A stretch of 64,000 bases of DNA. Source: a virus. Lineage: Duplodnaviria; Caudoviricetes. The position numbers and the translations under genes are program-made. Shown here piece by piece: positions 498 to 53,294 of this stretch. Positions within the stretch are counted from its first letter, which is position 1. Each line of letters begins with the position of its first letter. The stretch is from positions 32,001-96,000 of the IMG/VR virus record IMGVR_UViG_3300028833_000073; one strand, given 5' to 3'. The notes beneath the pieces are model-generated. The model saw only the letters and a list, made by a program, of their open reading frames with translations. It was not told the origin of the DNA and searched no databases.

Positions 498-1679
498 TTA
501 GTCCTCTCTAACACCAGTCTTGATATTACCAAGAATTCTATATAGAGCCTTATATAGAATGGTCTTATCCTGGTTAAATCTATCTTTATATGCATCAAGT
601 CTAGCGCTGAAAGCAATAGTATGAATAGAAGCAACTTCATTGATCTCATTAGATCTTGCCTTCATATAGTACTCATACTTTCTTGCAGCAGAATCTGACC
701 CTACATCATATTCTTTATCTTTAACCTTAAACTTACCTTCTTTATCAAGGTTTACAATCTTAGATACTTCCTTAGCAATATCATCATATGCCTTCTCGGC
801 TTCTTTCTTTCTCTTCTCTAGATCCTTCTTAATACTGTCATAAGTATTGAAACGGGTATAAGCTTCTGTAATATCAGTAGCTTCAAACTCATAGTCTTCT
901 TTACTAGATTGACCATCTCTGAAAACTTCAAAGAGATCCTTAGAATAATCAGAAGCATCAACTCTAGTATTATCAGTTCTTCCTAGCATATATCCTCTTA
1001 TCTTATCATAGTAATCATCACTTTCTAATGCATTCATATAGTCTTGATATGCTTTATCAATATCAAATCCACTTTCTCCATGCTTCTTAAAGCCTTCATC
1101 AGTATTACCAGTAGCAGGTTTAGTTGTAAATGCAGTATTAAGCTTATTATCCATGATATTAGATAAACCAGTACTTGCACTGATACTAAGCCTACCTGTA
1201 TTACTTGCCACACTATAAATAGCATTCATTGGAGGTACATTTGCACCAGCACCATCATCTATAGTAAACTTAAATACGTTCATATGGAACTTATGGTTCT
1301 CATTAAACTTATTGAAATCCTTCTTATGATCTTTAAGATACTTCTCTCTCTTGATTAGCATATTAATACCTACTAAGAACTTATTCAAAAGAGCTTTAAG
1401 AAAGTCCACTACTTTCTTAATAATCTTCTTAAAGGTATCCATCCAGTCAGAGAAAGATTCAGTAATGAGCATATCATTACCTTCACTCTCACATAAAGCA
1501 CCATAGAAAACTCTATTAGCTTCTAGCATCTCATTGTCTAGATTAGTAAGAAACTCTAGAGCTTCATTCACATATGAGTGATCATGTCTATCTGAGTTAA
1601 TGAAAGACTCATTCAAAGAAATAGCACCTTCTGTTACTACATTGGATGTAGAAGGTGCTAACCTATTAAGATCAAACAT
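498..1679 (-). CDS. putative internal head/virion protein, paralog family member 5
   Basis: Acidic N-terminal leader, then ITE|SFSDWMDTFKKIIKKVVDFLKALLNKF amphipathic helix; shares F..FR.G..SKE motif with the upstream paralogs. Confidence 0.65.
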   Translation of the reverse strand: MFDLNRLAPSTSNVVTEGAISLNESFINSDRHDHSYVNEALEFLTNLDNEMLEANRVFYGALCESEGNDMLITESFSDWMDTFKKIIKKVVDFLKALLNKFLVGINMLIKREKYLKDHKKDFNKFNENHKFHMNVFKFTIDDGAGANVPPMNAIYSVASNTGRLSISASTGLSNIMDNKLNTAFTTKPATGNTDEGFKKHGESGFDIDKAYQDYMNALESDDYYDKIRGYMLGRTDNTRVDASDYSKDLFEVFRDGQSSKEDYEFEATDITEAYTRFNTYDSIKKDLEKRKKEAEKAYDDIAKEVSKIVNLDKEGKFKVKDKEYDVGSDSAARKYEYYMKARSNEINEVASIHTIAFSARLDAYKDRFNQDKTILYKALYRILGNIKTGVRED

Positions 1680-1695
1680 ATCTTAATCCCTCCAT

Positions 1696-2790
1696 TTATT
1701 TCGGTTCATATTTGTAGTTAGCAATCTTAGCTATGAGAGCTTTATTCTGCTTAGACCTTTCTCTAAGAGCACCTAAAGCTGCACCATTGATTGCTAAGAG
1801 TAATGATTTAGATCTATGTGTCCAAGTAAGAAGGTAATTAACCGTAGACATACGATGACTATGTGCATCCTTACCTTTCTTATCTTTACTTCCAACTTTC
1901 AAAGAGTCTTTATCAATATCTTCTCTTGTCTTATTGTAAAGACTCTTCTGATTATATTCAAGCTGCTTAGAGGCATCATCAATGATTCTCTTAGCAGCTC
2001 TATACATCTCTTGTACTTTCTTTCTAGTGTCTCTAGATGTTTGCATCTCGGTACCAATAGTACCTACATTGATCTTACTATTATCCAATGTAGTTTTATC
2101 TTCTTCTCCATTTCTAAAAGCCTTATATAGATCTTTAATGAAATCTGATTGTGATAATTTAGATGCTTGTACCTTAGGGTTGATAGTATGGACTATGTTT
2201 CCTCTAAGGGTTTCAATAGTTGTTTCCATATCAACCTGAGCTTTACTAGGATCTTGGGTATTCTTGATATGAGTTTCAACCTTACTATCATCAAGATTAT
2301 CCATATCCTTATTACTTCCACCAGGCATATTATTACATAACTGCATAGCAGTTTCAATATTCTTAGTTTCTATAGTAAAGACAAATCCATCAAACTCAAA
2401 GTCCGTTAGATTCTTACCAAATACTTCCTTCTTATACTTCTCTAAGAAGGCTCTATCACTCTTAGTCTGTTTATCAATAAACATCATAAACGACTTAAAT
2501 AGAGAGGATAACTTCTCCCAGATTCTATATAAGAACTTCTTAACGGCAAGAATGAATCCTTGTACACTAGCTTCATTATACACTATATCTTCTTTATATT
2601 CTTCCAAATGAGATAATTCATTAACGTATATCTCTTTTTGTATCATATTGTAGTTCTCTGTCATATCAATGACAGCATCAAGTGCTCCCTCTAGATAATC
2701 TTCTCCTAGATACCAAGGAGATCTATCATATACTAAAGACTCTAATGTTAATTCACCTGTTAGAGTCTGATCGTTTTTGAAGATACCCAT
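1696..2790 (-). CDS. putative internal head/virion protein, paralog family member 4
   Basis: MGIF start; YNE|ASVQGFILAVKKFLYRIWEKL; KSDRAFLEKYKKE; AFRNGEEDK; late promoter at 2839-2850. Confidence 0.7.
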   Translation of the reverse strand: MGIFKNDQTLTGELTLESLVYDRSPWYLGEDYLEGALDAVIDMTENYNMIQKEIYVNELSHLEEYKEDIVYNEASVQGFILAVKKFLYRIWEKLSSLFKSFMMFIDKQTKSDRAFLEKYKKEVFGKNLTDFEFDGFVFTIETKNIETAMQLCNNMPGGSNKDMDNLDDSKVETHIKNTQDPSKAQVDMETTIETLRGNIVHTINPKVQASKLSQSDFIKDLYKAFRNGEEDKTTLDNSKINVGTIGTEMQTSRDTRKKVQEMYRAAKRIIDDASKQLEYNQKSLYNKTREDIDKDSLKVGSKDKKGKDAHSHRMSTVNYLLTWTHRSKSLLLAINGAALGALRERSKQNKALIAKIANYKYEPK

Positions 2791-2838
2791 ATAGGGAATC
2801 CTCCTTTCTTAAGACCCTTAATAAGCCTTTATAGTCAT

Positions 2839-2850
2839 TATCTCTATGTT
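2839..2850 (-). promoter_or_regulatory. late promoter AACA-N6-TA
   Basis: AACAtagagaTA on the minus strand upstream of the 2790 gene; motif recurs upstream of structural genes. Confidence 0.7.
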
Positions 2851-2909
2851 TGAGGTACACAAAATATACCCCCTAGGTTTCCCTAGGGGTTTATATATGA
2901 ATGATTGTA

Positions 2910-3176
2910 TTAGGCTTTAACTACCCAGTCATTAGCAAGCATATCTGCCTGAGATGCCAACCAACCAAGCTGTACACCAGAAGTTCCTACGAAAGCAACT
3001 GCCTGGTTACCAATAGCATCATGATTGGCATTGACCACTTCACCTTTAGCATTCTTGTAGCTGATATTGGTAGCAAGCTCAATATACTGATTCTTGCCAT
3101 TCCAACCTTCTCGTGCTACTTGTTTTCCTTCCTTCATAGCGATGATAGCTTCACCAAAATTCATTCTTTCTTGCAT
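2910..3176 (-). CDS. tad2: DUF2829 / Thoeris anti-defence 2 (Tad2)-family nucleotide-signal sponge
   Basis: MNFGEAIIAMKEGKQVAREGWNGKNQYI...GWLASQADMLANDW matches the DUF2829 signature; start moved to ATG 3176 after GGAGG (88 aa). Confidence 0.85.
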   Translation of the reverse strand: MQERMNFGEAIIAMKEGKQVAREGWNGKNQYIELATNISYKNAKGEVVNANHDAIGNQAVAFVGTSGVQLGWLASQADMLANDWVVKA

Positions 3177-3290
3177 TTGTAATTCCTCCATTCTATTATT
3201 AAGAAACAATACATTTATATGTATATAGACAAATTAAAAATAAATTCTCCCTAGGTCGCCCTAGGGAGAAATATATTAGATATGAAAGGA

Positions 3291-4487
3291 TTAATAGTCA
3301 GCTTCCCATACAGCAAGCTCAGCCATTGCCTCTTCCATAATCGCAGACTCTTCCTTACGCTTATAAGCAACTGCCTTAGCAAAAATACTACGATTCTGCT
3401 TATTGTTGAAGTCATAGATCTTAAGAGAAACTTGAGTTGCCTTAAGAACTGCAGACTGCACAATATTAGCAGTACGAGAAAGCATACCTAAAGCTCTCTG
3501 ATGTTTACTAATATTTTCAGAACGAGCATTTTTAGATTTATTATCAGTTCCAGCGGCACCCCATGAAGTACTAGCTGTTGAATATACTTTTGCTTTACCT
3601 TTTTCACTCATATCTGTATCATAGGCTACAGCAGTATGAGATCCTTCATCATTATCATTATCTTTAACTGGAGAATTCTTAAAATTATTATTAGAAGCTT
3701 TTTCAAGATCCTTAATAATCTGATTCATGTCTTTGTTAAGATTATCATATTGCTTCTTAATAGCTTTACGAGTATCCTTAAAGCCCATCATTTCAGTCAT
3801 AATATCATTTATATTTACGCTATCAGTGGTTTCATCTTCAAAAGCCTTATCAAAAGCTTCTTTTTCAAACTCTTTTTCACTTACACTAGATTCACCAATG
3901 AAAGAACCAAGAAGCTTTTCTTTTACATCTTCACCGTCAAACTTTTCATCTTCTTTGCTAATATCTTTATTGTTAATAATATCATAAGTAGAAATATGGC
4001 CGCCTGCCTTTTGGACTTTTACAGAAAGATTATCAAAACTGATAACTTCAAGAGTCTTCTTCTTACGATGAGAAGGCTCAAAATCAGTTAGATCCTTACC
4101 AATGATATCTTTCTTGTACTTATTAATGAATTCCTTGTTATTCTTACCAAACTTAGCTTCAAGACGAGCCATAAAGCCATTGAAAATAGCCTTAATCTTA
4201 GCCCAAAGCTTCTTGAAGAACTCTTTGATCTTATTGAACATATCTCCAATAGCACTCTCAGAGAAGTTCATAACTTCATTCTCATTAACACCTTCATTAA
4301 CCATTAAGCAAGCCTGCATATCTGTCTTAACTCCAGCTTCTACTAGAGCCATTTCATTCTGTAGGCCTACAATCTGTGCAATCTGGGCAGAGTATACACC
4401 ATCATCATAGCCTTCGGCCTCTTGAATATTAAGAGGGGCACTATACCCATTCATAGTATCCATAATCTGATTGGAAAAGATACCCAT
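3291..4487 (-). CDS. putative internal head/virion protein, paralog family member 3
   Basis: MGIFS start; FSE|SAIGDMFNKIKEFFKKLWAKIK; C-terminal KEES motif; late promoter at 4553-4564. Confidence 0.7.
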   Translation of the reverse strand: MGIFSNQIMDTMNGYSAPLNIQEAEGYDDGVYSAQIAQIVGLQNEMALVEAGVKTDMQACLMVNEGVNENEVMNFSESAIGDMFNKIKEFFKKLWAKIKAIFNGFMARLEAKFGKNNKEFINKYKKDIIGKDLTDFEPSHRKKKTLEVISFDNLSVKVQKAGGHISTYDIINNKDISKEDEKFDGEDVKEKLLGSFIGESSVSEKEFEKEAFDKAFEDETTDSVNINDIMTEMMGFKDTRKAIKKQYDNLNKDMNQIIKDLEKASNNNFKNSPVKDNDNDEGSHTAVAYDTDMSEKGKAKVYSTASTSWGAAGTDNKSKNARSENISKHQRALGMLSRTANIVQSAVLKATQVSLKIYDFNNKQNRSIFAKAVAYKRKEESAIMEEAMAELAVWEADY

Positions 4488-4552
4488 TATTTTTCACTCC
4501 ATTCATGATATTTTATCAACCCTAATAACAGGTTTATAGTTAGTGACATCAT

Positions 4553-4564
4553 TATCTTGATGTT
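4553..4564 (-). promoter_or_regulatory. late promoter AACA-N6-TA
   Basis: AACAtcaagaTA on the minus strand. Confidence 0.7.
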
Positions 4565-4613
4565 TAGAGATGTAAAGAACGATGAGTAGTAAATACTCCT
4601 TAATGACGATAAA

Positions 4614-4643
4614 AGAGACTATCCCATATTAGGGATAGTCTCT
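4614..4643. terminator. hairpin/terminator
   Basis: agagactatccc-atatta-gggatagtctct perfect stem just downstream of the 4650-5849 gene. Confidence 0.7.
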
Positions 4644-4649
4644 GATATA

Positions 4650-5849
4650 TCACTTAAGAGCAAGATCTGCTAAGAATCCAGAACCACCAGTTGGTGTATA
4701 AGACTCTTCATATGCACTTTCACTCTTAGACTTATGAGCTACTGCTGCTACGATACAAGCTTTATACTGACGAGAACGATCATTAATCGCCCTAAGTCCT
4801 TCTGCATTAACAGCGGTTAGTAATTCTGCACTAAGATGGGTCCATTTCAAATAATAGTTAGCTCCTGTAACCCTAGCTTCATAATGTTTGCTTTTTTCTT
4901 TATCATTATCTTTAGCCTGCTGTGTATCTCCAGAAGGTTTAACAGGAAGCTCATGATGACCTCCCTTAATAATAGAATTTAATACTTTTTCGGTATCTTT
5001 AATCGTCCTATCAGATGCCTTATATGCATCATTTAGTTCTTTCTTGGTTTGCTTTGAAGTCATAAGTTCTGTAGCATAATCAGAAAGATTAATCTTATCA
5101 AGTTCTTCTTTTTCACTTTCGCCATTACGGAAAGCTTCAAATAAAGCCTTTCTAAATTCAGTAGCATCCATTGATCCACCAGATTTTGCACCTGCAGCTA
5201 CAGCTACTTCACCACGTTCCTTCTCTGCCTCATCAGTAAATTTTTCATTATCTTTCTTAAAATTATCATTATTAGCATCATAAAACTGGCCTGCTTTAGA
5301 ATCACCTGCATTTTTTTCGATACCTTCAAAAGTCTTAAAATTAGATTCACTAATACCACATTTTTTAATAGCATTAGTAAGGTTGTCAAGTGTAAACTTA
5401 TATCCCTTGAAAGTGAAATCACTTAGATCCTTACCACTATAAATCTCTTTCTTATACTTTTGAACGAACTCCTTATCGTTCTTCATATAAGAATCAATCT
5501 TCATAATGAAACGCTTAAAGAGAGCCTTAATCTTCTCCCATACCTTCTTAAGGAAATTCTTAATACTCTCAATGAAGCCTTCAACTACTACTTCAGTATA
5601 TTCATACTCCTTACCAGTCTGCTCCATATAGACTAGCTCGTTACCCATTAAAGCCTTCTCAATCATATTGTAATTCTCATTGATATCAATGACTGCCTGA
5701 AGACCACACTCAGTGAGATCCATACTCTCTGAGAATACAGTATCTAGACTATCATCATTTAGCACTGCTTCCTCAAAACTCTTATTTTCAGTGATCTCAC
5801 TATCATAACCTTCATAGCTATTCTTAACTGTCTGGCTAAAAATACCCAT
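4650..5849 (-). CDS. putative internal head/virion protein, paralog family member 2
   Basis: MGIFS; VVE|GFIESIKNFLKKVWEKIKALFKRF; DKEFVQKYKKEIYSGK nearly identical to the 5996-7207 product. Confidence 0.7.
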   Translation of the reverse strand: MGIFSQTVKNSYEGYDSEITENKSFEEAVLNDDSLDTVFSESMDLTECGLQAVIDINENYNMIEKALMGNELVYMEQTGKEYEYTEVVVEGFIESIKNFLKKVWEKIKALFKRFIMKIDSYMKNDKEFVQKYKKEIYSGKDLSDFTFKGYKFTLDNLTNAIKKCGISESNFKTFEGIEKNAGDSKAGQFYDANNDNFKKDNEKFTDEAEKERGEVAVAAGAKSGGSMDATEFRKALFEAFRNGESEKEELDKINLSDYATELMTSKQTKKELNDAYKASDRTIKDTEKVLNSIIKGGHHELPVKPSGDTQQAKDNDKEKSKHYEARVTGANYYLKWTHLSAELLTAVNAEGLRAINDRSRQYKACIVAAVAHKSKSESAYEESYTPTGGSGFLADLALK

Positions 5850-5937
5850 TTTATTTTCATTCCTTTCATCGTATATTTCAAAGCATTATTAACTTACTTG
5901 AATGTAATCCCTATTCAAGAAGTCTGGTTAAAGACTT

Positions 5938-5949
5938 TATCTCTATGTT
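5938..5949 (-). promoter_or_regulatory. late promoter AACA-N6-TA
   Basis: AACAtagagaTA, identical to the copy at 2839-2850. Confidence 0.7.
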
Positions 5950-5995
5950 TAAATGATCAATTTAAAGAGGATACCATTAGGTATCCTCTTATATC

Positions 5996-7207
5996 TTACT
6001 TCATAACCACACTAGAGAAAGGAGTATAACCAAGACTAGCAGATTCTGCTAACTGTGCTACACTCTCATTCTTAGGCTTATGAGCCACATAGGCAATGAT
6101 AATTGCCTTATTCTGTCTAGACCTTTCTTTAAGAGCATTAAGACATGCTCCTTCAATAGTTAGTACACATGTTTTAGTATCTTTAATTGCTCGCATATTA
6201 AGGCTTAATGTTTTTGCAGCTCTATCACTTTGTTCCTTTCCAGTTGCATTAATAATAGATTTTTGTGCATTTCCATCTTTATCATAACGAGTAATGGTAG
6301 CAGATGATGATTTTGCATCTTTATCATCTAATGGCTGAGTTTTAAAAAAATCTTTTTGTCTTCTATCTACTTCTTTATCATCTTCATCTATAGATTTCTT
6401 TGCAGCTTTTAACATATCTGTCATTGTTTTCTTTGTTTCTTTTGATGTCATAAGTTCAGTAGCAATACCACTAATACCACCAGGAAAATCTTTTTCATCC
6501 AATTCTTCTTTAGATTCTTCTCCGCTATGATAAGCATTACGAAGTTCTTTAGTAAATTCAGATTGGGTTAAGGAGCTAGATGATTTTCCTGTTAAAGTTG
6601 TTATTACTTTTCCTCTAAACGCATCTGCAAGATCTTCGTATTTATCTTCAGTTTTCTTAAGATCATCTAGTGGTTTGGCAGTAGATCCTGCTAATTCTCT
6701 ATAGTCCATAGATTTAGCAACACAATCTTGAACAGCCTTACTAGTATTATCAAATGCAGACTTACTAAATTTCCATCCTTTAAAGGTGAAGTCAGTTAGA
6801 CTCTTACCACTATAAATTTCTTTCTTATACTTCTGAACAAATTCCTTATCAGTCTTTGTCCAGCTATCAATCTGCATCATAAATCTCTTAAAGAGAACCT
6901 TAATCTTCTCCCAGATCTTCTTAAGAAAGTTCTTGATGGCATTTACCATGTCACCAAGCATTCCTTCATTGTATACCAGGAGTTCACCGGTTCTCTCAAG
7001 ATATGAAGACTCAGCTAAAGCAGTCTGAGTCATAAACATATTGTAGTTCTCTTGCATAGTAATGCAGCAATCAAGAGCGCCTTCCATTAAGTCGTCTCCT
7101 TCATAAGGCTCTACATTACTATCAGTCATAATGGAATCAAGAGTGTCCTCATTAAAAGGTTGTTCTCCATGATATCCATAATGGGCTTCATTAGAAAAGA
7201 TTCCCAT
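5996..7207 (-). CDS. putative internal head/virion protein, paralog family member 1
   Basis: MGIFS; YNE|GMLGDMVNAIKNFLKKIWEKIK; C-terminal KPKNES. Confidence 0.7.
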   Translation of the reverse strand: MGIFSNEAHYGYHGEQPFNEDTLDSIMTDSNVEPYEGDDLMEGALDCCITMQENYNMFMTQTALAESSYLERTGELLVYNEGMLGDMVNAIKNFLKKIWEKIKVLFKRFMMQIDSWTKTDKEFVQKYKKEIYSGKSLTDFTFKGWKFSKSAFDNTSKAVQDCVAKSMDYRELAGSTAKPLDDLKKTEDKYEDLADAFRGKVITTLTGKSSSSLTQSEFTKELRNAYHSGEESKEELDEKDFPGGISGIATELMTSKETKKTMTDMLKAAKKSIDEDDKEVDRRQKDFFKTQPLDDKDAKSSSATITRYDKDGNAQKSIINATGKEQSDRAAKTLSLNMRAIKDTKTCVLTIEGACLNALKERSRQNKAIIIAYVAHKPKNESVAQLAESASLGYTPFSSVVMK

Positions 7208-46475: not shown

Positions 46476-46594
46476 ATAATATCCATGTGACGGAGGCTAA
46501 CGATACTGGGCTATATAAGAGAGAGTACCTATATGGTACTCTTTTCTTTTTCTATGGTACTAAATGAAAAGTGTAAATTGTTAAAATCTCAAAG

Positions 46595-46647: not shown

Positions 46648-46839
46648 ATGAAGGATGCAAGAACAGAAACTTTAAAATTGGTTCTCGGAGAAACCGAAAG
46701 GATATTAAAAAGAGAACTGAATTGGAGAAGAAAGATCTTCCAGGAACTGGTAAAAAGCAACGAAAGAATAAATTCGGCAATTCATGATATCGAGTATTTG
46801 AAGTCTGTAGTTACTCGCATCGAAAACGATGAGGAGTAA
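46648..46839 (+). CDS. early small coiled-coil protein
   Basis: Start moved to ATG 46648 after GAAAGGA. Confidence 0.65.
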   Translation: MKDARTETLKLVLGETERILKRELNWRRKIFQELVKSNERINSAIHDIEYLKSVVTRIENDEE

Positions 46840-46918
46840 TTAATATCCATGTCGGAGATAAAAAGAATGAGGGTACCTATATGGTACTCTTTTCTTTTTT
46901 GTAAATTTAGGTACCTTG

Positions 46919-46930
46919 AACTCCTATATA
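46919..46930 (+). promoter_or_regulatory. late promoter variant AACT-N6-TA for the RNAP gene
   Basis: AACTcctataTA followed by AAGGAGG and ATG 46956. Confidence 0.6.
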
Positions 46931-46955
46931 AATGCCTAATAAGGAGGTTTGAATA

Positions 46956-49900
46956 ATGTCAGCTATAGTAGATGATCTGAAAAACTATATGCTATACAAT
47001 AAAAAGATATATCTTCCAATTAATGATGATGACCGTAAAAATGGAAGTGCTATCTACTTACTTACTCCAAACTTGAATTCTTCTAAAGATATCTTAGGAG
47101 ATGTATATAATCATACTAAGTATGATGGTGCTATTAACTGGGCTAGCTACTATATGGAAAAGGATATGTCCTTCTATTTCCATACTGAATCTCATAAGAT
47201 GTCTAGACTAAGATCTAATCTTATTCTAGAGGATAGTGAATATACACTTGAGACAAATGTTAAAGGGACATTAAGTGAGTTCAAACGAGTGGAAATAAGT
47301 GAAGAGTTAATAGATCAATATAGTGGAGATTGTGATGATGTAAATGGATTGATTGGTTACTTTCCATGGACTGGTTATCTATATATGAATGAGAATGATC
47401 AGATAGTTGCTGGGTTAAATGTGAATGTAGATGATAGAGATATTCATAAGATCTTTGTGGTCGATGAAGAGAAGTATGGTTATCTATATAAGGATCTAAT
47501 TGCAGAAGCTAGAAAGATGAAAGCTAACTACTGTACCATTAGCAAGAATAATACAAGTGCTATCAAAGCACTTGAAGAATTTGGTTTTACTAAGACTGAA
47601 GACTTAGTAGACAATATAAAGATGCAGTTTAAGATTCCTATCACTGAATCTACTAGAGAGTCTGAAGTTATTGACTTCTTAGAACACTCTACTATGTTTA
47701 GACATATTAAGAACAATATCCAGTTTACTGAGCAGTATAAAGCTTTTAAGAAGCTAGTTATCTACTACTGTGAGTTCTTCAATATTAAGAAAGAGATAGG
47801 TATTCTAGGTGCTATCATTGTCTGTAGTAATAACCTAATCAATCCAGAAGAGTTGAGAGGGAATCTAAAGATTCTTAACTACATGAGTCAAGAAGAGATT
47901 GCTATTGCTTATAAGGCTGCTATGGGAGCATATGAACATAAGTTCATCGGAGAGAATATATATGATAGAATTCTATTTGATGGTTATAGACTCATACACT
48001 TCACAGATATTAATGTCATTATTAGAGATGAAGTCTTAGCTTACTATGATGAGCATAGTATTAATGGAAGATGGGATAATAACTTCCTATACATGAATGA
48101 AGTAGAAGAGATAGTGGAGAATATTAAGAGGAAGCATAGTACTAGTTCACCTAATCATATGATTCTTAATCTCTCTTATAGCTACTATAGGAAAGCTCAT
48201 AAGAAAGTACAATCTGCTATAAATAAGGGATTAACTAATAAAATTATCATTGACTATAGGGTCACTGTAAAAGAATCTGCTGAAGATGATATAGCTGCTA
48301 ATATACTCAATGAAAGTCATATCTCTTTTGGGTATGAGGATGAGAAGTTTACTAACTATGATCCTGATTGGAGATTCAAGTTATTTCCTAACCACAGAGG
48401 ACCTGGATTTGGATTTACTACTAAGACTGACTCTAAGAATCTAAGAGGAATCATTATAAGTTCTGGTACTGAGGTTAAAGGTGTTATAGGTGTAGATGAG
48501 TATAATAATATCATTGAGATGTACTGGACTGATATCAATCCTACTTTCTTACTAATGATTGCAGAACGTAAGTTCTATGCCAATAAAGTAGCTGTACCAA
48601 GGGGATATAAAGTAGCTATAGAAGCTCTTCAAGAATGTTCTAGCTGGTGTGAAGTAGAAAGAGATGAGCATGAAATTCACTTTGATTGTTACTCTCAAGA
48701 GAGGATTCCATATAAAGATATTGGGATTACTAAGAATGTAGCAAATATCTTTAATAGACTATCTTCTACTGACAAGGAGTATCTAGGTAATCAGTATCTT
48801 AACCCAGTATGTATCTCAAGTACTATCTGGAGTAAGGTATTAGAGGATACAGCTCTTGTAGATGTCTATGTACAACCTACTATGCCAAAGATCGGATGGA
48901 TTGATATTGCTGTGGTAGAATCTCAGAGAGGTAAAGGTTATGCTCTACGATTGATAAGAGAAACTCAAGAAGAGATAAAGACTAAGTTCAAAGATATAGA
49001 TGCTCTAGGATGGGTATGTCATAAAGACAATACTGCTTCATATAATCTTGCCACTAAAGCTGGTTTCTATCCATATAAAGAAGTAGAAGACCACAAGTAT
49101 CTTCTATGGACTATCCACAATACAGATATGATTCCTAATACATTCATAGAAGAAACAGAAGAGACTGAATGGACTGTAAAAGGTATAGAAGAATCATCTA
49201 CTATCAATGGTGATGGAGTAATGATGTTCATAGATGAAGATGTATCTAAGGTAATGGATGATGCTAAGTTTGGATCTAAGCTAAAGAAGATTATGTGGGA
49301 AGATAGAATTAGGAATAATAAGCAGGTACTACAGATATATGACTCTGTTAAGAAGGATACTAATGGTGGTATCAAGTACACCTATCTAGATCTTAATCTC
49401 TATAAGGGAAGGAATCTATTTGTTGACTTGTCATTCTATAACATTAGCTTCTTTAACAACTATACTAAGGCTGCTCCGAATGAAAGAGGACTAAATGAGA
49501 TGTACTTTGAGCTAGTATCTAGATTGATCAATGATAAAAGAATCAAGGATAAATATAAGAAAATCAATGTAATCATTCCTATAGAAGATTGGTGTAAAGA
49601 AGATATAAAGAAATATAAGGCTGAAGCTGTTAGAAAGGCAGACTACTGGGAGAATCTTAGTCCAATAGGTTGCTTCTTATTCTATGCAGAGAAGAATCCT
49701 TTAAGACTTCGTCAAGAGTTTAAGAATATTAACTTCATCTTCATTAGTGAGAGTGGTAGTTTCTTTAAGACTAACTTCACTGACTATGATAAGTCTAAAG
49801 ATTTTGTTAAGTTTAGAACTGCTGTACATAGCTTACTTAAGAGAGTCCATATTCCTAAGGATGAGACTTATGATAAGAAAGCTATAGTTCATAGTGTACT

Positions 49901-52900
49901 AGATAAAATGGAGTCTAATGGAGAAAACAAAGTAGTCATCAATAGCATTATAGCTAAACCTGAAGAACCTGGTAGTATTGATATACATGATCCAGCAGAT
50001 ATGAATGAAGAACAAAAGAAGAAAGCAGTTGTAACTAAGATTACTAATGCTGCTGAGAAAAGTAAGAGTCCTGAAGATGTAGTTGACACTATGTCTAAAG
50101 ACAATGAGTATGCCAAGGAATATACTGAAAAACTACTTAAGGATCTAGCTGATAATGAAACAGGGAATGTTAAGCTATCTGCTGCTAGAAGTAAGAGATT
50201 AGATAGTTTGAGTGAGAAGTTCTTATCTCAGAAGGTAGTAGATAATAAAGCTAAGTTTAATGGTACTATGGAGGAGTATATCAACTATAATTCTAATGCG
50301 GAAGAGTTACCTGAGACTGCATTACCTATAGAGAGTATCAATGAAGGATGGAAGCATCTTAAGTTTACTAACTTTGATGCTAGATATAGTGTAAGATCAG
50401 ATATCTATGCTATTCTATACTCATTTGAGAATAAGACTAGTAGGTTATCTATAAGGGATAAGATTGATATTGTAGATACTAGTACTACAGAAGACTGGAA
50501 GGAAACATGGACTGTTCCTTTTGAAGCTGATACAGGTAAGAGATTCAAGTTGAAGTTTGATGTTCCTTTGTTGAAAGATAATAGAAATATGGTATTAGGT
50601 GGTAATGACAAGACTATGAATGGTCAGCTAGTACTACTACCAATATCTAAGACAGATGAAGATACAGCACAGATAGTATCTCTTTACAATAAGATCTTTA
50701 TTAGAAGATATAGTATGGGCAACTGTAAGGCTAATAGGGAAACCGATAGGTTAAATAAAGCAATAGAGATTTTTACTAAAGAGCATCCAAATATTATGAA
50801 AATAACATATGGAGATAGCTCTAAGAGTAATGTGAAGTATGCTCTTCCTTTCGACTATACTGAGCTAGCTAGTATGTACTATAGCATAGAGCTGTATAAG
50901 AATAATAAACTAGAGCTTAAGATACTATTCAATCAAGACCAAGCAAGAAAAGAAGCAGGTCTTAAAGATGATGATACAAGAATGCCATATGGATACACTG
51001 TAAGAAATGGTAAGAAGGAAACTCTATTCTGGTATACTGATGATAGGATGGTATTTGCTAGTCAGGTTGTAGGTGTTATAAGTGGAAGATCAATTGAGTT
51101 TTATGATGTATATAAGAAGATAAAGCCAGGTGCTAAGCATTGCTATAGTAAGGCAAGCATTTTAGGTACTGAGATTCCAGTGATAATCATTATGGCTTAT
51201 TGTGAAGGATTGATAGAAGCTCTTAGAAAAGCTCATATCAACTATATTATCTCTGATAAGAGGGTCAATAGTTATAATGATACTCATGATATGATCAAAT
51301 TCAGTGATGCTTATCTATACTATGAAGATACTTATATTGGATCTATGCTTATGAATGGTATTAAAGATGTAGATACTAAAAGTCACTCTATACAAGAAGT
51401 AGATTCTAAGTCAATGTGGACTGAATTCTTAGATGAATATGGTGGTAGAGCTAAGTCCGATGGTCTTGATAACTTCTATGATCTTATGATGGATCCTATC
51501 ACTATCGAGGTATGTAATGTATATAAGCTTCCTACTGACTTCTGTGAGATGTTAGCTTATGCAAATCTCTTACTATCGACGAATGAGTATATAAAGCATA
51601 CTGATCTTAGTTCTAATAGATATAGAACCAATGAGATGATTGCTGTTCATGCTTATAAATGCTTAGCAAAAGCTTATGCTAATTATAGACTACAGCTTAA
51701 GAAGGAAAGATCTAATGTAGCTATGACTATGAAGCAGTCAGCTATCATTGACTCTATCATGGAAGAATCCATTATGTCAGATCTATCCATAATGAATCCT
51801 AACCTAGAAGCAGAAGCTATCAACTCTGTAGGATTCAAAGGACTTACTGGTATGAACAATGATAGATCTTACTCATTAGACAAGAGAACTTATGACAAGA
51901 GTATGACTAATAAGATTGCTATGTCTACTGGATTTGCTGGTAACGTAGGTGTTAATAGACAGACTACTATAGATATGCAGATATATGGTACTAGAGGATA
52001 TATAAAGAACTCGGATATGAAAGATGCATCTGTTACTAATACTCTTAGCATCACAGAAGCATTAACTCCATTTGGATCTACTAGAGATGACCCATTTAGA
52101 ACTGCTATGACTAATATCCAGACAAGTAAGCATAACATGAGAATCAAAGAGTCCATGCCTATGCTAGTGACATGTGGTGCTGATCAAGCATTACCATATC
52201 TTACAGGAGATACATTCTCGTTTAAAGCTAAGGGTAATGGTAAGGTTATTAAGAAAAATGATGATTATATGGTCGTAGAGTATGATAATAAGACTAGAGA
52301 GATGATAGATCTAAGAGAGAATGTTAAGAAGAACTCTGATGGTGGTTTCTATATCACTGTGAAGCTAGATACTAATCTTAAGAAGGGATCTAGATTCAAA
52401 GAGAAGGATATATTAGCATATGACAAGGTAGTATATAATGACTCAGTAGGTGACGGTAAGAATATAGCTTACTGTGTTGGTGCTTTAGCTAATGTAGCTT
52501 ATCTTAATACTGATGAAGGATTTGAAGATTCTGCTATTATCTCCAATAGATTAGCAGAAGCTTTATCATCTGAAGTAGTAGTAGAAGTTGCTAAGAACTT
52601 ACCTTGCAACACTAACATATTTGATATCGTTAAGAAGGGTACTAAAGTACAAGAAGGTGACACTCTACTCTTATTCCAGTCTCCATTTGAAGAAGAGGAT
52701 GCTAATAGAATCGTCAAGAATCTTGCTATGGATAAGAAAGAAGTATCTGAGCTAGGAAGAATACCATTAAGATCTAAAGTAACTGGTGTAGTACAAGATG
52801 TAAAGCTCTATAGAACAGTAGAACTATCTGAGATGTCTCCTAGTCTTAGGAAGTTGTTCAAGGAATATGAGTCTAAGATAGAAGTAATGAGAAAGGACTC

Positions 52901-53294
52901 TGAAGGAATGCTCAATAAGGTTCCTCTAGAAGCCAACTATAAACTTCCTGCTGTCTCTAAGATGAAGAATCTAGAAGGTAAGGTAAGAATTGAGTTCTAT
53001 ATAAAGTATAATGACAAGATGGGTATCGGAGATAAACTAGTATTCTACTCAGCAGTAAAAGGTGAGACTAAAAATATATTCCCCAGGGGGTTAGAACCCT
53101 ATACAGATGATCGTGGTAGTTCTGAAATTATTGATTCACTTTGTCCATTACCTAGTCTCTTACATCGTATGGTAGCATCAGTTACGATTGTTACTGGTCT
53201 CTATAAGGGTGTAGTAGAATTGACTAGATATATGAAGGAAGCCGTAGGATTAAAATATATTCCATATAATCCAAGAGAAGAAATTAAAAAATAA
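46956..53294 (+). CDS. phage multisubunit RNA polymerase beta-like subunit (probably virion RNAP) with N-terminal GNAT-like domains
   Basis: C-terminal ~950 aa has beta motifs: GNVGVNR, DDPFRTAMTNIQTSKH, GFEDSAIIS, GDKL....KG, RM; GNAT motif A IAVVESQRGKGYA and HKDNTASYNLATKAGF near 48900-49070. Confidence 0.88.
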   Translation: MSAIVDDLKNYMLYNKKIYLPINDDDRKNGSAIYLLTPNLNSSKDILGDVYNHTKYDGAINWASYYMEKDMSFYFHTESHKMSRLRSNLILEDSEYTLETNVKGTLSEFKRVEISEELIDQYSGDCDDVNGLIGYFPWTGYLYMNENDQIVAGLNVNVDDRDIHKIFVVDEEKYGYLYKDLIAEARKMKANYCTISKNNTSAIKALEEFGFTKTEDLVDNIKMQFKIPITESTRESEVIDFLEHSTMFRHIKNNIQFTEQYKAFKKLVIYYCEFFNIKKEIGILGAIIVCSNNLINPEELRGNLKILNYMSQEEIAIAYKAAMGAYEHKFIGENIYDRILFDGYRLIHFTDINVIIRDEVLAYYDEHSINGRWDNNFLYMNEVEEIVENIKRKHSTSSPNHMILNLSYSYYRKAHKKVQSAINKGLTNKIIIDYRVTVKESAEDDIAANILNESHISFGYEDEKFTNYDPDWRFKLFPNHRGPGFGFTTKTDSKNLRGIIISSGTEVKGVIGVDEYNNIIEMYWTDINPTFLLMIAERKFYANKVAVPRGYKVAIEALQECSSWCEVERDEHEIHFDCYSQERIPYKDIGITKNVANIFNRLSSTDKEYLGNQYLNPVCISSTIWSKVLEDTALVDVYVQPTMPKIGWIDIAVVESQRGKGYALRLIRETQEEIKTKFKDIDALGWVCHKDNTASYNLATKAGFYPYKEVEDHKYLLWTIHNTDMIPNTFIEETEETEWTVKGIEESSTINGDGVMMFIDEDVSKVMDDAKFGSKLKKIMWEDRIRNNKQVLQIYDSVKKDTNGGIKYTYLDLNLYKGRNLFVDLSFYNISFFNNYTKAAPNERGLNEMYFELVSRLINDKRIKDKYKKINVIIPIEDWCKEDIKKYKAEAVRKADYWENLSPIGCFLFYAEKNPLRLRQEFKNINFIFISESGSFFKTNFTDYDKSKDFVKFRTAVHSLLKRVHIPKDETYDKKAIVHSVLDKMESNGENKVVINSIIAKPEEPGSIDIHDPADMNEEQKKKAVVTKITNAAEKSKSPEDVVDTMSKDNEYAKEYTEKLLKDLADNETGNVKLSAARSKRLDSLSEKFLSQKVVDNKAKFNGTMEEYINYNSNAEELPETALPIESINEGWKHLKFTNFDARYSVRSDIYAILYSFENKTSRLSIRDKIDIVDTSTTEDWKETWTVPFEADTGKRFKLKFDVPLLKDNRNMVLGGNDKTMNGQLVLLPISKTDEDTAQIVSLYNKIFIRRYSMGNCKANRETDRLNKAIEIFTKEHPNIMKITYGDSSKSNVKYALPFDYTELASMYYSIELYKNNKLELKILFNQDQARKEAGLKDDDTRMPYGYTVRNGKKETLFWYTDDRMVFASQVVGVISGRSIEFYDVYKKIKPGAKHCYSKASILGTEIPVIIIMAYCEGLIEALRKAHINYIISDKRVNSYNDTHDMIKFSDAYLYYEDTYIGSMLMNGIKDVDTKSHSIQEVDSKSMWTEFLDEYGGRAKSDGLDNFYDLMMDPITIEVCNVYKLPTDFCEMLAYANLLLSTNEYIKHTDLSSNRYRTNEMIAVHAYKCLAKAYANYRLQLKKERSNVAMTMKQSAIIDSIMEESIMSDLSIMNPNLEAEAINSVGFKGLTGMNNDRSYSLDKRTYDKSMTNKIAMSTGFAGNVGVNRQTTIDMQIYGTRGYIKNSDMKDASVTNTLSITEALTPFGSTRDDPFRTAMTNIQTSKHNMRIKESMPMLVTCGADQALPYLTGDTFSFKAKGNGKVIKKNDDYMVVEYDNKTREMIDLRENVKKNSDGGFYITVKLDTNLKKGSRFKEKDILAYDKVVYNDSVGDGKNIAYCVGALANVAYLNTDEGFEDSAIISNRLAEALSSEVVVEVAKNLPCNTNIFDIVKKGTKVQEGDTLLLFQSPFEEEDANRIVKNLAMDKKEVSELGRIPLRSKVTGVVQDVKLYRTVELSEMSPSLRKLFKEYESKIEVMRKDSEGMLNKVPLEANYKLPAVSKMKNLEGKVRIEFYIKYNDKMGIGDKLVFYSAVKGETKNIFPRGLEPYTDDRGSSEIIDSLCPLPSLLHRMVASVTIVTGLYKGVVELTRYMKEAVGLKYIPYNPREEIKK

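Follow-up and report, generated by a model that had tools for sequence, protein, structure and literature searches.

The window analysed here is a stretch of 64,000 nucleotides, bases 32001-96000 of a 158-kb viral contig from IMG/VR (CheckV completeness 64%), and the gene under study is an uninterrupted open reading frame (ORF) of 2112 amino acids (aa) at positions 46956-53294 on the plus strand. From its sequence matches, the product is identified as the beta-N subunit of a jumbo-phage virion RNA polymerase (vRNAP) and not of the non-virion paralogue (nvRNAP). Between a short conserved module at its N-terminus and its conserved body lie several further domains, here called the cargo, among them a predicted GNAT acetyltransferase. 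The parts of the gene are listed below in window coordinates; pLDDT (predicted local distance difference test) values refer to the structural model described further on, and a slash marks the putative cleavage position after Glu.

46956-53294 (+): whole gene, virion-type RNA polymerase (RNAP) beta-N subunit with cargo (ORF, PHROG RNAP beta families and match to AR9 gp188)
46956-47210 (+): N-module, aa 1-85, shared by vRNAP beta-N homologues at their very N-terminus (phmmer, alignment and hidden Markov model, HMM)
47220-47234 (+): junction motif LILE/D, E92 and D93 invariant (homologue alignment)
47262-47636 (+): D2, aa 103-227, a fold with GNAT element order that lacks the acetyl-CoA loop; no other cargo domain is as well conserved (DSSP order, Pfam match below cut-off, Atlas neighbour)
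47637-47651 (+): linker with PITE/S, E231 invariant (low pLDDT at aa 228-235; P-I-x-E-[SA] context in 8/8 homologues)
47661-48263 (+): D3, aa 236-436, all-helical (model; no Pfam match)
48264-48317 (+): linker, aa 437-454, with VKE/S (E440, not conserved) and LNE/S (E453, invariant) (alignment and low pLDDT)
48318-48719 (+): D4, aa 455-588, GNAT-ordered alpha/beta domain with no low-pLDDT break before the GNAT (DSSP order)
48720-49133 (+): GNAT acetyltransferase, aa 589-726, with motif A R658-G-K-G661-Y-A663 and motif B N692..S695..A699..F704 (Pfam, PHROG, model and motif conservation)
49119-49256 (+): linker, aa 722-767, with FIE/E (F730 and E732 invariant), IEE/T, IEE/S and FIDE/D (E761) (alignment and low pLDDT)
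49257-50255 (+): vRNAP-specific region, aa 768-1100, conserved in every homologue, also in the cargo-less ones (AR9, Staphylococcus phage AH12)
50256-53294 (+): beta-homologous core, aa 1101-2112 (phrog_14872 at aa 1129-2095; tblastn onset at aa 1124-1139; mean identity 67% among close homologues)

The first-pass annotation of the window, made from the letters alone, had called the gene an RNA polymerase beta subunit, and profile searches agreed, as two PHROG families of that description matched aa 970-2090 (phrog_3148, E 1e-128) and aa 1129-2095 (phrog_14872, E 5e-119). When the protein was compared by tblastn with 50,697 phage genomes, 296 jumbo phages were matched, with the matches confined to the C-terminal 40-60%; the best relatives were Staphylococcus, Listeria and Bacillus jumbo phages (~31% identity from aa ~1124) together with phiR1-37, and the alignments to AR9, PBS1 and the Staphylococcus jumbo phages began at aa 1124-1139. 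In AR9 only one place was matched, gp188, which is annotated 'beta subunit, N-terminus; virion RNAP subunit', and by this homology the protein is assigned to the virion enzyme. The phage is most likely an uncultured AR9/PBS1-like jumbo phage, and by analogy its beta-N subunit is predicted to be packaged. The estimate that about 1,100 aa precede the core also held, in that beta homology sets in near aa 1125-1130, but not all of that length is cargo, since aa 1-85 and 768-1100 are conserved, polymerase-specific parts.

To define the upstream region, aa 1-800 were folded with AlphaFold2 from an alignment of ten homologues (mean pLDDT 66). The model contained four confident domains, D2 (103-227), D3 (236-436), D4 (455-588) and the GNAT (589-726), and low-pLDDT stretches at aa 1-102, 228-235, 437-454 and 722-767. 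The only Pfam match in the first 1100 aa was Acetyltransf_1 at aa 644-704, which reached E 4e-7 and 30.8 bits and so passed the cut-off of 20.7 bits, and PHROG acetyltransferase families matched the same domain. The model of aa 589-726 aligned to solved GNATs in VIA-align with Z 13.7 and a root-mean-square deviation of 2.1-2.8 A over 121-129 residues, and gave E 3e-5 in Foldseek. The closest solved structures were mostly protein acetyltransferases (PA4794, S. lividans PAT, Naa10/Ard1 and RimI), with Z values tied with those of small-molecule enzymes. Motif A was conserved in 8 homologues, R658 and G661 being invariant and position 663 being A, G or S, and the mean identity of the domain among close homologues was 42%. 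The one clear GNAT that had been noticed on first reading was therefore recovered by profile, fold and motif, and aa 589-726 appear to form an intact, complete GNAT that should bind acetyl-CoA.

Two further GNAT-like folds of degenerate type and a helical domain had also been proposed. The helical domain corresponds to D3. The two stretches fall on D2 and D4, and in the model both follow the GNAT order of elements by DSSP (b1-a1-a2-b2-b3-b4-a3-b5-a4-b6-b7), so that the claim stands as regards topology, but sequence supports it poorly for D2 and not at all for D4. D2 scored E 0.04-0.065 (11-14 bits) against Acetyltransf_1, under the 20.7-bit cut-off, its beta4-alpha3 loop reads DEEKYGYLY and lacks the R/Q-x-x-G-x-G/A of motif A, and the Atlas search returned a single GNAT-fold cluster (DUF1999; score 0.95, rank 26). 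As modelled, D2 is GNAT-like in shape only, without sequence-family membership or motif A. For D4 neither Pfam nor Atlas gave support and hhalign of D4 against the GNAT found nothing; hhalign of D2 against D4 gave E 5e-4 with a probability of 31%. D2 was nevertheless more conserved among close homologues than the true GNAT (mean identity 56% versus 42%; invariant columns 36%), which points to a constrained function specific to D2. This entire N-terminal architecture was retained, at 36-66% identity, in seven full-length homologues from metagenomes and in one fragmentary homologue.

The variability of the region was then compared across related beta genes, as the first-pass annotation had suggested. 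In a phmmer search of aa 1-800 against 1.8e9 representatives, aa 4-95 aligned to positions 3-90 in roughly 90 proteins that differed greatly in length, and aa ~590-800 matched internal portions of other proteins. The common plan was an N-module at the extreme N-terminus, a variable stretch, and a conserved body whose first residues correspond to aa ~740-768. As the first set of homologues had been found with a GNAT-containing query, the survey was repeated with the core alone (aa 1130-2100), which returned 1491 homologues at E <= 1e-20; the best 120 of the 1491 were 1206-2200 aa long and carried the annotations GNAT, Peptidase_M23, metallophosphatase or DUF6582. For scoring of the insert, 119 homologues were analysed (113 new hits and six earlier ones), of which 110 allowed the N-module and the beginning of the body to be placed. 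The N-module started within the first 10 aa in all 110, whereas the insert between it and the body ranged from ~0 to 757 aa (median 184; 672 in this phage). On a FastTree phylogeny of 111 proteins, computed from 500 residues of the core that are distant from the insert, the character 'insert >= 300 aa' changed state at least 15 times, compared with 28-36 changes in the five printed runs with shuffled labels. Because its length and content vary and its state changes at least 15 times on the core tree, the insert site is apparently a hot spot of repeated gain and loss, and the expected variable inserts with differing enzymes were thus found.

The contents of the variable stretch differed widely. 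Pfam identified NUDIX in P0057, whose stretch reached ~950 aa, DUF362, HAD and GNAT in P0063, three GNATs in P0065, three GNATs with a P-loop kinase-like domain in P0012, and DUF6582 in many homologues; the NUDIX, HAD and metallophosphatase domains of relatives scored well above the Pfam cut-offs. At the other extreme, the insert was nearly absent from P0009 (1444 aa) and from two complete IMG/VR genomes of ~254 kb, and in AR9 and Staphylococcus phage AH12 the N-module passed almost straight into the body with essentially no linker. AR9 gp188 (g189, a late gene whose product is annotated as a virion subunit) and its homologues in PBS1 and the Staphylococcus jumbo phages are homologous to the present protein over its whole C-terminal part from aa ~1124 onwards and have the N-module and the vRNAP-specific region in common with it, but the cultured phages have no cargo and the N-module joins the conserved region almost directly. 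Neither the N-terminal 815 aa nor the gene itself, in tblastn and megablast searches, matched anything among 50,697 phage records, so that the cargo form is known only from metagenomes. In a related-locus search of IMG/VR the N-terminal 800 aa found nothing, and the full alignment found only two cargo-less relatives.

DUF6582 (motif ER..LPDS.FG.P..RKYP..D..H) was the commonest non-GNAT element at this position, occurring in 26 of 41 family members, usually directly after the N-module; its carriers include P0026, P0031, P0061, P0063 and P0065. No mention of it was found in the literature searched.

The N-module itself was traced further by HMM, which hit the start of AR9 gp188 (E 0.003) and did not detect phiKZ, 201phi2-1 or SPN3US, so that homology with the N-terminal regions of those three phages is not established. 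On the 158-kb contig no paralogue of the N-module was present, and hhalign of the module found nothing; within the known part of the genome it is therefore not a shared capsid-targeting tag.

The position of the N-module bears on how the cargo is attached. A reading of the cargo as a simple N-terminal extension did not hold up, as a conserved module precedes it. A natural cargo-less homologue, P0075, was folded with 17 sequences, and in this model the N-module reached pLDDT 80-96, compared with ~30 in the model of aa 1-800, where its downstream partner is missing. Alignments of P0075 to three-layer alpha/beta folds covered residues 9..345 and left out the disordered stretch 72-154, at Z values of only 4-5.4. 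These observations, which consist of pLDDT values from two models of different alignment depth and of alignment ranges at low Z, are, together with the near absence of a linker in AR9 and AH12, only suggestive of a single domain formed by the N-module and the region after the cargo, with the cargo in a loop. As the N-module precedes the cargo and appears to co-fold with the post-cargo region, the cargo behaves as an insertion.

Elsewhere on the same contig, outside the window, lies an ORF of 825 aa (G000:C1:16731-19208, plus strand; locus L003:154-2631) with DUF6582 (aa 24-73), NUDIX (274-395) and GNAT (454-552) domains. Cargo segments of vRNAP beta-N proteins from other phages were matched by parts of this ORF (E 1e-24 to 1e-31). 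That the same DUF6582-NUDIX-GNAT set is a separate gene here means that the modules work without a covalent link to the polymerase, which argues, as far as sequence comparison goes, that they act as effectors in their own right and do not belong to the transcription machinery. The 825-aa protein has a short leader ending in LLNE/A that recalls a T4-type capsid-targeting sequence.

Attention had also been drawn to six sites of the type E/S, E/D or E/T at the module boundaries, with the proposal that they were cut by a prohead protease. The six (E92/D, E231/S, E440/S, E453/S, E733/T and E746/S) were found where they had been placed, all within low-pLDDT linkers, but their conservation was uneven. 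At E92/D, E231/S and E453/S the Glu, a hydrophobic residue at P3 and a small residue at P1' (positions counted from the putative cut) were kept in 8/8 homologues with P2 variable, and at F-x-E732 the Glu and hydrophobic P3 were kept in 8/8 with a small following residue in 3 only. Thus four linker positions (E92, E231, E453 and E732) are conserved, whereas VKE/S (E440) and IEE/S (E746) were not conserved among close homologues. The kinship to known prohead-protease sites held only in part: the I, L or F at P3 resembles sites of T4 gp21, but the conserved candidates I-L-E, I-T-E, L-N-E and F-I-E differ from the motifs measured for the family of phiKZ gp175, which are (S/A/G)-x-E in phiKZ and A-x-E in SPN3US (PMC5694885), P3 across the measured motifs of that family being A, S, G or T. 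Linker motifs with a small P3 (SAE440 and GIE745) were present and not conserved. The sites would thus suit a protease that cuts after Glu and, like T4 gp21, prefers a hydrophobic residue at P3; the specificity measured for the protease family of this lineage is different.

The explanation that we favour, with a probability of about 0.65, is that the protein is a vRNAP beta-N subunit with a labile 'cargo bay' between the ~85-aa N-module and the body, and that its GNAT cargo would be delivered as an early effector. The bay would here hold the GNAT-like D2, the helical D3, the GNAT-like D4 and then the intact GNAT. The polymerase would have to sit in the capsid, enter the cell with the DNA and transcribe the early genes, so that its cargo would be present at time zero, before phage gene expression; packaging and entry are taken over from AR9 and phiKZ-type phages, where early transcription is carried out by an injected vRNAP (PMC5312081, PMC7598289). 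The cargo would be released by the head-maturation protease at the conserved hydrophobic-x-Glu linker sites, or would stay tethered, and the GNAT would most likely acetylate a host protein or another amine-bearing target, contributing to takeover or counter-defence. A role on host targets is suggested by analogy with T4 Alt, phiKMV Rac and the polyvalent proteins (PMC5512222, PMC7824862), Rac being a phage GNAT that targets the alpha subunit of host RNAP (PMC7552054, as cited in PMC7824862). A more far-reaching form of this idea, which we hold tentatively and would not back at even odds, is that AR9-like gut jumbo phages possess a docking bay for interchangeable enzymes (acetyltransferases, NUDIX, HAD, metallophosphatase and peptidases) that would ride into the capsid on the polymerase, be excised by the head protease at hydrophobic-x-Glu sites that flank the cargo and separate its modules, and be co-injected as a time-zero effector kit.

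Several results weigh against the cargo-bay explanation or against release from the bay. Sequence searches of NCBIfam and the PDB assigned neither a GNAT subfamily nor a substrate, and where GNATs usually have the motif-B tyrosine this protein has Ala699. The cultured relatives checked (AR9 and Staphylococcus phage AH12) lack cargo. The junction motifs are kept in cargo-less homologues as well and for that reason may be structural. No prohead protease (phrog_3014, phrog_7478 or PF03420) was found on the 158-kb, 64%-complete contig, and T4-type Peptidase_S77 gave no match on it. On the other side, AR9 (E 9e-35) and two complete ~254-kb relatives (E 3e-12) do have a member of the phrog_3014 family, that of phiKZ gp175 and SPN3US gp245. 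The P3 residues of the conserved sites are, as noted, not those of the phiKZ and SPN3US motifs, and the apparent co-folding of the N-module with the post-cargo region speaks against a simple removable propeptide. Finally, precedent is divided, for the vRNAP beta of 201phi2-1 loses an N-terminal propeptide at TFE-275, and the SPN3US homologue retains its N-terminal region uncut (PMC5694885). Taking these together, release of the cargo by processing is plausible, at odds that we would set just short of even.

Much of the same evidence would suit a cargo that is never cut, its domains being held in cis at the entering genome, where they might acetylate proteins that meet the DNA or the polymerase, or tune early transcription. 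In SPN3US, vRNAP beta functions with its long N-terminal region still in place (PMC5694885), the P3 residues mismatch the measured specificity of the lineage's protease family, a cargo placed as a loop insertion within one domain would resemble the lineage-specific inserts of bacterial beta subunits, and D2 is nearly as conserved as the core. However, cargo content and length change often, the same modules occur as free proteins, and the linker Glu motifs are conserved with a variable P2, as cut sites should be. We regard permanent tethering as a serious contender that nonetheless falls somewhat below an even chance.

Whether the Glu motifs mean anything for processing has to be judged against linker composition. 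Within aa 86-767, 11 of the 17 E[SDT] dipeptides fell within the 89 linker residues (Fisher p 7e-7), but this enrichment is only suggestive because polar, acidic linkers favour such dipeptides anyway, and Glu overall was enriched in the linkers too (p 0.006). Conserved sites of the hydrophobic-x-E-small type also occurred within the folded core (1179, 1701, 1854, 1900 and 2095), and E184 sits within a D2 helix, so the motifs might be a by-product of acidic, polar linkers with no part in processing. Against this, each of the three interdomain linkers and the junction of N-module and cargo has a conserved Glu with hydrophobic P3 and variable P2 at 36-66% identity. A motif [LIVMAST]-x-E-[ASGDTN] within 45 aa past the SYYxEKD anchor, mostly at 19-27 aa, was present in 88/95 homologues compared with 54 +/- 4.6 in shuffles, and F-x-E within 70 aa upstream of the core anchor was present in 20/31 compared with 8.8 +/- 2.3. 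Five head-protein paralogues in the window also share an invariant Glu in the same context. A purely compositional origin is possible, and on balance we lean against it.

That the extra domains are non-catalytic adaptors for packaging or scaffolding, whose GNAT-like folds dock the polymerase into the prohead or inner body, would agree with the missing acetyl-CoA loop of D2 and D4, with D2 being the most conserved cargo domain and with the guidance of incorporation ascribed to long N-terminal regions of giant-phage head proteins (PMC5694885), but it is improbable, given that the third GNAT-type domain retains R-x-x-G-x-A/G/S in 8/8 homologues, that the NUDIX, HAD and metallophosphatase domains of relatives lie far over the Pfam cut-offs, and that cargo-less homologues sit in complete ~254-kb genomes, so that cargo is not needed for packaging.

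The arrangement can be compared with several known systems. The vRNAP beta-N proteins of Chimalliviridae (201phi2-1 gp274/273 and SPN3US gp241) are likewise virion RNAP beta subunits with a long N-terminal region, which the prohead protease of 201phi2-1 removes by a cut after Glu (TFE-275) and which SPN3US keeps (PMC5694885), but no enzymatic cargo is described there and the cleavage motifs have a small or polar P3. T4 Alt and the internal proteins are packaged, cleaved by gp21 at L/I-x-E and injected, as outlined in PMC5694885; Alt is thus a packaged host-modifying enzyme and the hydrophobic P3 preference matches the candidate sites here, whereas these are free proteins with a leader of 10-20 aa and are not fused to a polymerase. 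A parallel in the same phage group is the HD phosphohydrolase fused to the vRNAP beta-C subunit of AR9, PBS1 and BpSp (PMC7598289, PMC7824862), which also places an enzyme domain on a virion RNAP subunit but concerns the other subunit and a single fixed domain with no reported variability. In the polyvalent proteins, N4-like virion RNAPs are fused to ART, lysozyme or MPTase domains (Iyer et al. 2017, PMC5512222), and proteolytic release has been proposed (PMC5512222). These are large virion-delivered proteins with shuffled effector domains, GNATs included, as the present protein would be if delivered as its vRNAP role suggests, and the hallmark of many unrelated effector domains with a composition that varies among relatives is found here too. 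They differ in that the carrier is a single-subunit RNAP or a MuF-type protein, whereas here it is a subunit of a multisubunit RNAP with one fixed internal site and no built-in peptidase.

Jumbo-phage GNATs, polyvalent virion proteins including N4-type vRNAPs, the HD domain on AR9 beta-C and proteolysis of the vRNAP beta N-terminus are already known, and our literature search found no paper on enzyme cargo, or on a fixed variable site, on the beta-N subunit of a multisubunit virion RNAP. A virion RNAP must reach the host cytoplasm before any phage gene is read, so that anything riding on it would be the earliest possible effector. If the cargo-bay explanation is right, a multisubunit virion RNAP with a fixed and often re-stocked insertion site would offer takeover or anti-defence enzymes a new delivery route, the polyvalent-protein idea would extend to nucleus-forming and AR9-type jumbo phages, and the ~1,500 core homologues (inserts of 0-757 aa among the 110 scored) would become a catalogue of candidate early effectors. 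It may also help to explain why giant phages differ in whether they cut or keep the N-terminal region of vRNAP beta.

The sequence just upstream of the gene contains three further features.

46871-46900 (+): hairpin and T-run terminator, preceding the promoter-like element and the ribosome-binding site
46919-46930 (+): late-promoter-like AACT-N6-TA (read from the sequence; weak evidence)
46941-46947 (+): ribosome-binding site AAGGAGG (read from the sequence)

The promoter-like element is one base off the AR9 late consensus AACA-(6N)-TA/G (PMC5312081) and is weak evidence compatible with a late, virion-protein gene. The same hairpin and T-run (GGTACCTATATGGTACTC followed by a T-rich tract) is present twice on the plus strand, at 46526-46556 and 46872-46900, and the two copies flank a small ORF (46649-46840) with an early-promoter-like GATATATTAT at 46594.

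The five paralogues mentioned above are tandem genes at 498-7207 on the minus strand that encode proteins of 364-403 aa, four of them starting MGIF[SK], without a PHROG match. They have one invariant Glu in common, located around aa 74-100 within the motif [IYF]-[TNS]-E-[SAVG], and they may be processed internal head proteins. A 713-aa major capsid protein candidate, considered for calibration of the protease motif, matched only 'hypothetical protein' entries in cultured phages and was dropped. In AR9 (NC_031039.1) the phrog_3014 match at 88583-89617 on the minus strand came in two pieces, covering profile positions 10-75 and 87-265, so that the head-maturation protease gene of AR9 looks like an intron-split gene. 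Some 3.5 kb upstream of the RNAP gene, with several small ORFs between, lies a divergent giant ORF of 7123 aa (22012-43383, minus strand), whose syntenic 6902-aa homologue in a 265-kb relative has Phage_lysozyme2 and Peptidase_M23 domains.

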